A DNA stretch of 10,870 bases, from positions 1-10,870 of the IMG/VR virus record IMGVR_UViG_2695420687_000005; one strand, written 5' to 3'. The position numbers were made by a program, and so were the translations under genes. Source of the stretch: a virus. Lineage: Duplodnaviria; Heunggongvirae; Uroviricota; Caudoviricetes. The notes beneath the pieces were generated by a model. That model saw nothing but the letters and a program-made list of their open reading frames with translations. It was not told where the DNA came from and searched no databases. Below, in pieces: positions 5,996 to 6,865 of the stretch. The number at the start of each line of letters is the position of its first letter. The stretch's first letter is position 1.

Positions 5996-5999
<4 letters not shown>

Positions 6000-6865
6000 T
6001 TAATTTAATTCTTTCAGCACCAGTACCTGAAATGGCTGAAGCATTTAAGCGGGCATTCGCAAATGCAGATAATGTGGATGTTGTAGAAAAAACATTTGAA
6101 GCAATCCCGGAATTTGACTGCATGGTCAGTGCGGCAAACAGTTTCGGGCTAATGGATGGCGGCGTTGACGCTGCCATTACTGCATTCTTTGGTACTCAGT
6201 TACAGACACGTGTTCAGAATCATATTCTTCGTGAATATCTTGGTGAGCAGTCTGTAGGCACTGCATTTGTTATTGAAACGGGGGATAACAACCATCCCTG
6301 GCTGGTACATGCGCCGACAATGCGCGTTCCGCTGACCATTGACGGAACAGACGCTGTATATAACGCCACGTGGGCTGCTTTACTTGCCATCTTTCAGCAC
6401 AATAAAAATGCAACGACAGACAGGAAAATAAAGACGGTGGTATTCCCTGCAATGGGGGCCGGATGTGGTCAGGTGCCGTTTGAAAGTGTTGCCCGGCAGA
6501 TGAAGCAGGCATGGGATAACTTTAGTAAAAAAACAGAAGCAATTAACTGGGAATACGCACACTCCCGCCAGTTAGAAGTATTTAATACATGCGCATACTG
6601 CCCGGGTACTCCTGCCTGTCGTTATGCGGATATTAAATATATTGGACTCGGAGATTATCGGACGTATTGCTTACGGTCAGGGCAGGTATGCATTAATCCT
6701 GAACATCAGGTTGATGACGTGCTGACTAATAATCGTTCTCGCCCGGGGGCACATATGCATCAGATTAATCCGGTAAAATCCGTAGGTAATATTGCCATTG
6801 GCGCACACAGCCACGGAAGGAATATCACCATTGGTGCTCATTCCCATACCCCACATAAACAATAA
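5996..6865 (+). CDS. Macrodomain protein (ADP-ribose-binding/hydrolase fold) with a Cys-rich segment and a C-terminal His-x-His repeat tail resembling the tail-fibre tip
   Basis: Macrodomain signatures seen by eye: [18 protein letters not shown] (compare VNAAN..GGGV..AI) and [14 protein letters not shown] (compare AFPAISTGVYGYP). The protein is collinear with the Af1521/YmdB-type fold over about 180 aa. The C-terminus carries GAHMHQ, GAHSHG and GAHSHT motifs. Start ATG at 5996 overlaps the tail-fibre stop (ATGA). GC content is lower than in the phage core genes. Confidence 0.75.

Follow-up and report, generated by a model that had tools for sequence, protein, structure and literature searches.

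A Macro2-type macrodomain gene with a fibre-tip-like His-x-His tail, optionally inserted in the tail-fibre cassettes of temperate enterobacterial phages

We analysed a stretch of caudoviricete DNA of 10,870 nucleotides (nt) (IMG/VR record IMGVR_UViG_2695420687_000005, positions 1 to 10,870; hereafter, the window), in which a gene for a macrodomain protein (hereafter, the macro gene) lies between a tail-fibre gene and the gene for the fibre assembly chaperone Tfa. The encoded protein combines a macrodomain of the kind represented by yeast Ymx7 (Macro2) with a Cys-rich knuckle and a C-terminal tail of His-x-His (HxH) units that resemble the fibre tip. The macro gene appears to be an optional accessory of the host-range cassette (fibre tip plus Tfa) in temperate enterobacterial phages. 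Our favoured but tentative interpretation, in which our confidence falls a little short of even, is that it encodes an accessory, late, probably trimeric Macro2-type enzyme that acts on an ADP-ribose derivative, removing a 1''-linked group, for counter-defence.

Results

The macro gene encodes a Ymx7-like macrodomain

The macro gene and the regions of its product, in amino acids (aa), are as follows:
5996-6865, + strand: macro gene, ATG to TAA (6863-6865), 289 aa
5996-6592, + strand: macrodomain of the Ymx7/Macro2 type, aa 1-199, with N48-x6-G55-G56-V57-D58, H105-A-P-T and the phosphate loop G154-A-G-C-G158
6593-6730, + strand: Cys-rich knuckle, aa 200-245, with C202, C208, C225, C232 and H237, followed by HQVDD
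6731-6865, + strand: fibre-tip-like HxH tail, aa 246-289 and the stop codon, with GAHMH at 6746-6760 and GAHSH at 6800-6814 and 6833-6847

A first-pass annotation, made from the sequence alone, had read this open reading frame (ORF) as a complete macrodomain and proposed a profile search as a check. The ORF is real, and the search bears out the domain: Pfam Macro (PF01661) matches aa 44-169 over the whole profile (positions 1-118 of 118; E=5.3e-19; 68.7 bits, cutoff 22). An AlphaFold2 model, which rests on a 69-sequence alignment of diverse representatives, has a predicted local distance difference test score (pLDDT) of ~97 for aa 1-199, adopts the three-layer alpha/beta/alpha macro fold and matches macrodomains in the PDB (an earlier run on a shallow 19-sequence alignment of close homologues gave a pLDDT of 60 and was discarded). 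The closest solved relative is Ymx7 (YMR087W; PDB 1NJR/1TXZ/1TY8), an ADP-ribose-1''-phosphatase of the Macro2 type that is ~20% identical to the window protein, with the N-terminal extension included in the alignment. Unlike the window protein, Ymx7 is a eukaryotic housekeeping protein that has no Cys4/HxH tail and carries large insertions.

Residues N48, D58 and H105 are invariant within the clade and align with N80, D90 and H145 of Ymx7, which are said to be the residues proposed as catalytic by Kumaran et al. in 2005. The motifs N-x6-GGVD and HxPT are kept in 107 of the 110 homologue clusters. With N48-x6-GGVD58 and G154-A-G-C-G158 both present in the pocket, ADP-ribose binding or hydrolysis is predicted. 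The second loop reads G156-C-G-Q159 and thus lacks the aromatic residue that MacroD hydrolases have in their G-[VIA]-[YF]-G loop. Pairwise ratios of nonsynonymous to synonymous substitution rates (dN/dS) of 0.11-0.19 for the domain point to strong purifying selection on the macro gene.

The domain is, then, a bona fide macrodomain of the Ymx7/Macro2 kind, and of neither the MacroD nor the DarG/AdfM kind. Membership in the YmdB/MacroD-type hydrolases was rejected, the YmdB-type NCBIfam equivalogs scoring 21-51 bits against cutoffs of 200-315, and so was membership in DarG, for which the PADLOC model covers only 40 residues (E=0.002) with no full-domain match. In BFVD, a homologue of T4 Tk.4 (the AdfM family) appears at rank 40 with E=3e-4, against 1e-18 for Ymx7-like viral proteins, which come from giant viruses and jumbo phages. 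Ymx7 is the sole studied member of the Macro2 type and converts Appr-1''-p (ADP-ribose that bears a 1''-phosphate) to ADP-ribose (PMC6397177).

The C-terminal extension is a family trait

In the protein, the tail units are GAHMH (aa 251-255), GAHSH (aa 269-273) and GAHSH (aa 280-284), and the fibre tip contains five HxH units. The Cys pattern that precedes the tail, AYC-x(4-6)-C-x(12-18)-C-x6-C, is kept in 109 of the 110 full-length homologue clusters, and its four Cys positions are invariant or near-invariant in the set denoted A2. Downstream of this pattern, at least one HxH unit is present in 105 of 109 full-length clusters (96%) and at least two in 90 of 109. Pairwise dN/dS is 0.10-0.18 in the Cys region and 0.34-0.45 in the tail: the HxH tail evolves faster than the macrodomain, yet not neutrally. 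The first-pass annotation had allowed for a chimeric 3' end left by recombination; these frequencies and dN/dS values speak against a one-off event, and the tail is a family trait, not the scar of a local chimera. A recent duplication of the fibre 3' end was likewise rejected, the repeats shared by 5700-5960 and 6740-6860 being only motif-coding units of 13-21 nt with 76-88% identity.

The likeness of the tail to the fibre tip, which had also been claimed, goes beyond composition. Local alignment of the tail with its own fibre tip scores 77, compared with 33 +/- 6.9 for 200 composition-preserving shuffles (z ~6), and BLASTP finds 15 identities in 38 positions (E=4e-5). Matches of the tail to fibre-repeat profiles are sub-threshold (Pfam Phage_fiber, 8.5 bits vs a cutoff of 20, E=3.4; phrog_295, E=0.0096), and, as far as these alignments tell, the similarity holds at the level of the motif only. 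Some Salmonella variants read GAHTHTIDIGAHNH, with a 9-residue HxH period equal to that of the fibre. An 8x8 score matrix of macro tails against fibre tips reveals no consistent preference for the cognate tip.

The same G-A-H-x-H repeats occur at the HxH iron sites of the T4 gp37 tip, the R-type pyocin fibre shaft, the P2 gpV apex and T4 gp12; a comparison of the C-terminus with the P2 gpV apex found no similarity. In the macro proteins the units, one to four in number, are carried by an enzyme, at its C-terminus, and not by a fibre shaft. In pyocin fibres, T4 gp37 and P2 gpV, three chains contribute one HxH motif each to an octahedral Fe site (PMC6116203). Because HxH motifs of three fibre chains hold iron in this way, the tail is most economically read as a homotrimeric stalk bridged by metal, and by this analogy the macro protein would be a trimer with metal at the HxH levels. 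In the AlphaFold2 model of the monomer, the hairpin at aa 211-225 has a pLDDT of ~55 and aa 237-285 fall below 50. The Cys knuckle is probably a small beta-hairpin module stabilised by a metal or by disulfides.

The Cys-rich knuckle is found in the fibre-linked clade only. Outside this clade we found 2,335 representative relatives, mostly stand-alone proteins of ~200 aa that match residues 1-195 of the query alone, among them those of jumbo phages and giant viruses; some are eukaryotic fusions. A tblastn search with the Cys-rich/HxH module against 50,697 phage records retrieved macro proteins, one fragment in Salmonella phage SEN34 and nothing else. The SEN34 fragment (L007, 4001-4162) is unannotated, matches just the Cys-rich part (53% identity over 60 aa) and sits between O-acetyltransferase and integrase genes; it looks like the remnant of a former macro gene.

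The macro gene is an optional insert that is coupled to the late fibre operon

The surroundings of the macro gene are the following:
4602-5999, + strand: 3' two-thirds of a tail-fibre gene of the P2 gpH / lambda Stf type, 5'-truncated in the window, with a Collar domain and five HxH units at ~5724-5921
5987-5999, + strand: coupling junction, with GAGG at 5987-5990 in the last fibre codons and the macro ATG (5996-5998) over the fibre TGA (5997-5999)
6866-6889, + strand: 24-nt spacer that came with the macro gene, judged against the macro-less cassette L008, with its own GAGG (6882-6885) for the tfa start
6890-7465, + strand: tail-fibre assembly chaperone gene tfa / gpG (Caudo_TAP, phrog_105), a 191-aa gene at the equivalent ATG of intact prophages

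Profile matches confirm the position between fibre and chaperone genes. The upstream ORF matches Pfam Collar (E=2.7e-10), Phage_fiber (E=1.3e-6) and phrog_295 (E=1.8e-128), and the downstream one matches Caudo_TAP (E=7.8e-39) and phrog_105 (E=2.6e-89); the macro protein itself has no Caudo_TAP or Tfa profile match. The ORF list starts tfa at GTG 6884, a mechanical call. The true start is most likely ATG 6890, because the macro-less cassette L008 and the gene calls of intact prophages agree on it and GAGG (6882-6885) precedes it.

In E. coli CE0011b (L008), a fibre tip 92.4% identical to window positions 5388-6006 abuts a tfa gene 87.6% identical to 6889-7420. The junction reads ...GTGAGGCTGGCATAATGACTTTC..., the fibre TAA overlapping the tfa ATG (TAATG), and precisely the segment corresponding to window ~6000-6889 is missing. 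The insert in the window thus consists of the macro ORF and the 24-nt spacer with its own GAGG, placed at the very junction of fibre stop and tfa start, so that the Shine-Dalgarno sequence serving tfa in the macro-less cassette here serves the macro gene, and the spacer supplies a new one for tfa. Tfa N-termini are nearly identical in macro-plus and macro-less cassettes. Because near-identical fibre tips and Tfa occur without the macro gene, fibre assembly does not depend on it.

Presence or absence between collinear genes is the mark of a moron, and that half of the earlier proposal, an inserted moron, stands; the proposed insertion within HxH-coding repeats does not fit the site just described. 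Like morons of the lambda bor/lom type, the macro gene is an optional insert between conserved late genes that is absent from sister phages. Unlike them, it is coupled into the late operon, lacks a promoter and a terminator of its own and has the guanine-plus-cytosine (GC) content of the flanking genes. No promoter-like site was found on the + strand in 4300-7700 and no usable + strand terminator, the sites all lying inside coding sequence and being fewer than the shuffle mean. Because it lacks both signals, the macro gene is not a classical moron.

The overlap ATGA at 5996-5999, noted in the first-pass annotation, is present with GAGG 5 nt upstream and supports the coupling to the fibre gene claimed there. 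Since the macro gene has no promoter of its own and its start codon overlaps the fibre stop, it would be made with the late fibre operon; that is, the sequence predicts translational coupling to the fibre gene and expression late in infection. A programmed -1 frameshift fusing fibre and macro proteins was rejected: a TAA at 5975 closes the macro frame, which is open just from 5978 onwards, and the sequence lacks a slippery heptamer.

Distribution, synteny and annotation

The order fibre(Collar)-macro-tfa with the 4-nt overlap recurs in related prophages and phages. It is found in the P2-like phages Chuche and SEN4/5, the lambdoid Gifsy-1, P1-like plasmids, a defective P2-like prophage of E. 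coli O39, Erwinia and Citrobacter prophages and a Mu-like Enterobacter prophage. The 4-nt overlap of fibre and macro genes was seen in Chuche, Gifsy-1, SEN5, Erwinia, Enterobacter, Citrobacter and four intact prophages, and is conserved across at least five phage backbones. The hosts belong to Escherichia, Salmonella, Erwinia, Enterobacter and Citrobacter, and the associated fibres are all of one tip type, with five HxH units and the end ...NTVKNIA(F/Y)NY(I/L)VRLA. The homologues in Gifsy-1 (STM2588.1n), Salmonella phages SEN4/SEN5 (gp19) and Escherichia phage Chuche (CDS0053) share the family, the position and the overlap, with 67-89% aa identity. Two arrangements can be told apart: in the window/Chuche type, three GAHxH units are well formed and a spacer of 24 nt lies ahead of tfa, whereas Salmonella types have one to three HxH units and a macro stop codon that overlaps the tfa start.

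Among 5,426 complete E. coli genomes, 128 (2.4%) carry the macro gene, in 108 chromosomal and 22 plasmid places, and 4,703 contain fibre/tfa-related DNA. The macro family comprises 1,675 clusters at 90% identity. The first-pass annotation knew of no described macrodomain in this position. That holds for the searchable literature, including the SEN4/5 paper, which is silent on the macro gene, but not for the databases: the Gifsy-1 record already marks the Macro domain (STM2588.1n), RefSeq uses 'macro domain-containing protein', some entries bear a transferred 'phage tail protein' label, and in PHROGs the protein is phrog_2613 (E=3.4e-134), listed as function unknown. Another profile, phrog_14717 ('tail protein', 228 positions), matches the fibre HxH region of the window with positions 19-104 and the macrodomain with positions 76-226, a hint that some phages have ORFs in which fibre tip and macrodomain are fused. 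The 'tail protein' labels borne by unrelated macro proteins of jumbo phages probably stem from this profile.

In the P1-like plasmid pEC17CM13_2 (L005, 5607-6498), the annotation gives the macro gene a frameshift and an internal stop, and the upstream fibre gene is in fragments; some macro genes, then, are decaying. Several macro cassettes have minus-strand acetyltransferase or hexapeptide-repeat genes and lipopolysaccharide (LPS) glycosyltransferase genes 3' of tfa (L006, 6926-7498; L010/L011, 6467-7045; L005, 7138-8824), which are probably lysogenic-conversion cargo. The window contains no gene at that site (7466-7535).

The nearest stand-alone relative, P0121 (L013, 4134-4757), is a 207-aa protein, 64% identical and without the Cys/HxH tail. 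Its gene, on a phage-like contig, is not in a tail module but lies between a gene for a 460-aa methyltransferase and ParB_N genes, upstream of the terminase gene gpA, in a typical accessory or anti-defence neighbourhood.

The window: a crippled P2-family prophage or an assembly chimera

Window positions 1-3141 and 4601-10870 are 99.9% identical to an intact prophage (L018). Between them, the window has 1,460 bp (3142-4601; junctions 3141/3142 and 4601/4602) in the place of 4.36 kb of that prophage (3' lysB, lysC, R, S, V, W, J, I and the 5' third of H). This piece is 100% identical to E. coli chromosomal DNA and contains, on the minus strand, a yjgL variant and the 3' end of tabA. Because host DNA takes the place of ~4.4 kb of prophage, the fibre gene lacks its 5' part: the reading frame is open from ~4563, fibre homology begins at 4602/4608, and no in-frame ATG, GTG or TTG lies ahead of 5274, compared with 652-752 aa for intact fibre homologues. 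The window is either a crippled prophage, with a real deletion/replacement, or an assembly chimera. An identical 289-aa macro protein is encoded on 24 other contigs; at four of these sites it lies in P2-family prophages with normal gene order and fibres of 652-752 aa.

Rfam and tRNA scans of the window found nothing. The AT-rich ORF (~32% GC) at 2843-4351 on the minus strand (502 aa) matches no Pfam, PHROG, NCBIfam or PADLOC family; it is a divergent allele of the yjgL region, present as 'hypothetical protein' in two E. coli genomes. Because it crosses the host-DNA junction at 3142 into the prophage, its 3' end here is artificial. A near-identical P2-family prophage (L017) carries a 625-aa SASA (sialate O-acetylesterase-like) gene between lysB and R (2399-4276) and a PIN_12 gene near ogr, further cargo hotspots of this phage lineage.

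Discussion

The interpretation that we tentatively favour can be spelled out as follows. The macrodomain would bind an ADP-ribose derivative and hydrolyse the substituent at the 1'' carbon of the distal ribose, which might be a 1''-phosphate, as in the case of Ymx7, or another 1''-linked group. The Cys4 knuckle and the one to four HxH units would assemble the protein into a metal-bridged homotrimer, with six histidines per Fe/Zn ion at each HxH level. Inside the infected cell, such a protein may eliminate or sequester toxins, marks or immune signals that are based on ADP-ribose, and its place in the cassette would let the macro gene move together with the host-range determinant. We read its role as counter-defence because the pocket is intact, the gene is under strong purifying selection and dispensable for fibre assembly, P0121 has the setting that it has, and there are precedents in AdfM and in jumbo phages. 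T4 AdfM (Tk.4), a macrodomain, counters DarTG2 (bioRxiv 10.1101/2025.11.20.689424), and for the Macro and NADAR domains found in jumbo phages, degradation of ADP-ribose-derived signals and toxins has been proposed (PMC7824862).

Several observations weigh against this interpretation. Catalysis is not assured, because the second loop, G-C-G-Q, differs from the G-[VIA]-[YF]-G of MacroD; a cytoplasmic enzyme has no obvious need for a fibre-like HxH tail, or for a fixed place beside a single fibre-tip type (...NYIVRLA); no paper on the function of the macro family was found in the full-text literature; and Ymx7 has been reported to have no de-MARylating activity, that is, no activity in removing mono-ADP-ribose (PMC6397177). 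The reversal of DarT-type modification, which the first-pass annotation had offered as an example of counter-defence, is for this last reason less likely than suggested, and it is weakened further because the domain is of the Macro2 type and not of the DarG/AdfM type. AdfM and the macrodomain of the DarG antitoxin (ALC1-like class), both of which undo DNA ADP-ribosylation by DarT, belong to another macro class than the window protein, and AdfM is an early or middle stand-alone gene outside any fibre cassette.

The tail and the location find a ready explanation if the protein is borne on the virion: the Cys4/HxH tail, aided by Tfa, would dock a trimer of the macro protein onto the fibre tip or next to it, where it might act as a surface esterase or phosphatase on a ribose-containing polymer or as an extra receptor-binding head. 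The resemblance of the tail to the fibre tip beyond the composition controls, the 9-residue periodicity of the fibre kept by some Salmonella variants and the profile phrog_14717, which joins HxH repeats to a macrodomain under the name 'tail protein', are all in line with this idea, as are the production of the macro protein when and where the fibre is made and the invariable location directly after one fibre-tip type and before Tfa on P2-like, lambdoid, P1-like, Mu-like and other backbones. We nevertheless regard it as unlikely. Near-identical fibres and Tfa exist without the macro gene, macro tails are not clearly closer to their own fibre tips than to those of others, tail-less relatives are ordinary accessory genes of an intracellular type, and we found no virion proteomics. 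Moreover, we know of no ADP-ribose-like ligand on the enterobacterial surface.

The absence of the MacroD catalytic-loop aromatic residue would be accounted for if the protein were a non-catalytic sponge whose pocket just binds an immune signal derived from ADP-ribose, for example glyco-cyclic ADP-ribose (gcADPR) or histidine-linked ADP-ribose (His-ADPR), the trimeric tail raising local concentration or avidity. Known phage anti-Thoeris proteins act as sponges, and macrodomains are the natural His-ADPR receptors in ThsA of type II Thoeris. This possibility appears quite unlikely, given that the clade-invariant N48, D58 and H105 align with Ymx7 residues that reportedly have a catalytic role and so argue for catalysis.

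It is more doubtful still that a captured stand-alone macro gene has simply been co-transferred with an often-exchanged cassette, the HxH tail being a relic of the capture and any benefit, metabolic or defensive, going to the lysogen. The clean presence/absence polymorphism, the rarity of the gene (2.4% of E. coli genomes), a frameshift in at least one copy (that of the P1-like plasmid) and a tail more variable than the domain are what such hitch-hiking would leave behind. However, dN/dS is well under 1 in all three regions, tail included, HxH and Cys4 are kept across genera with saturated synonymous sites, and a gene without its own promoter would not be expressed in the lysogen.

Finally, there is a slight chance that the macro protein is an antidote linked to the trigger of an immune response, a macro trimer tethered through the HxH tail to the fibre/Tfa complex destroying or sequestering the signal at its source. 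In this scenario, the signal might be, for example, His-ADPR, which is 1''-linked, so that the host-range cassette would carry its own immune-evasion module; this part we consider no more probable. The type II Thoeris signal His-ADPR is read by a macrodomain, and sensing of the fibre tip and the chaperone by TIR-type immunity, on which the scenario builds, has recently been shown for type II Thoeris in N4-like phages of Pseudomonas (bioRxiv 10.64898/2026.06.04.730250).

That macrodomains of phages can be counter-defence enzymes is just beginning to be appreciated, T4 AdfM acting against DarTG2 being an example. The Macro2/Ymx7 class has essentially one studied member, against the abundant phage family described here, and an enzyme with a fibre-type HxH tail is an architecture unreported in searchable papers. 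The family is more general than first thought, being widespread and of conserved architecture, yet already annotated in databases, and it is common in well-studied bacteria and their elements, including ~2% of complete E. coli genomes, Salmonella Gifsy-1 and P1-like plasmids. The macro gene lies within the very module that is exchanged to engineer phage host range. If it is a counter-defence factor, transplants of 'fibre + chaperone' would carry it along silently; if its product is attached to the fibre, this would be the first case of virion display for a macrodomain. The natural plus/minus cassettes and cultivable phages (Chuche, SEN4/5) make both possibilities directly testable.

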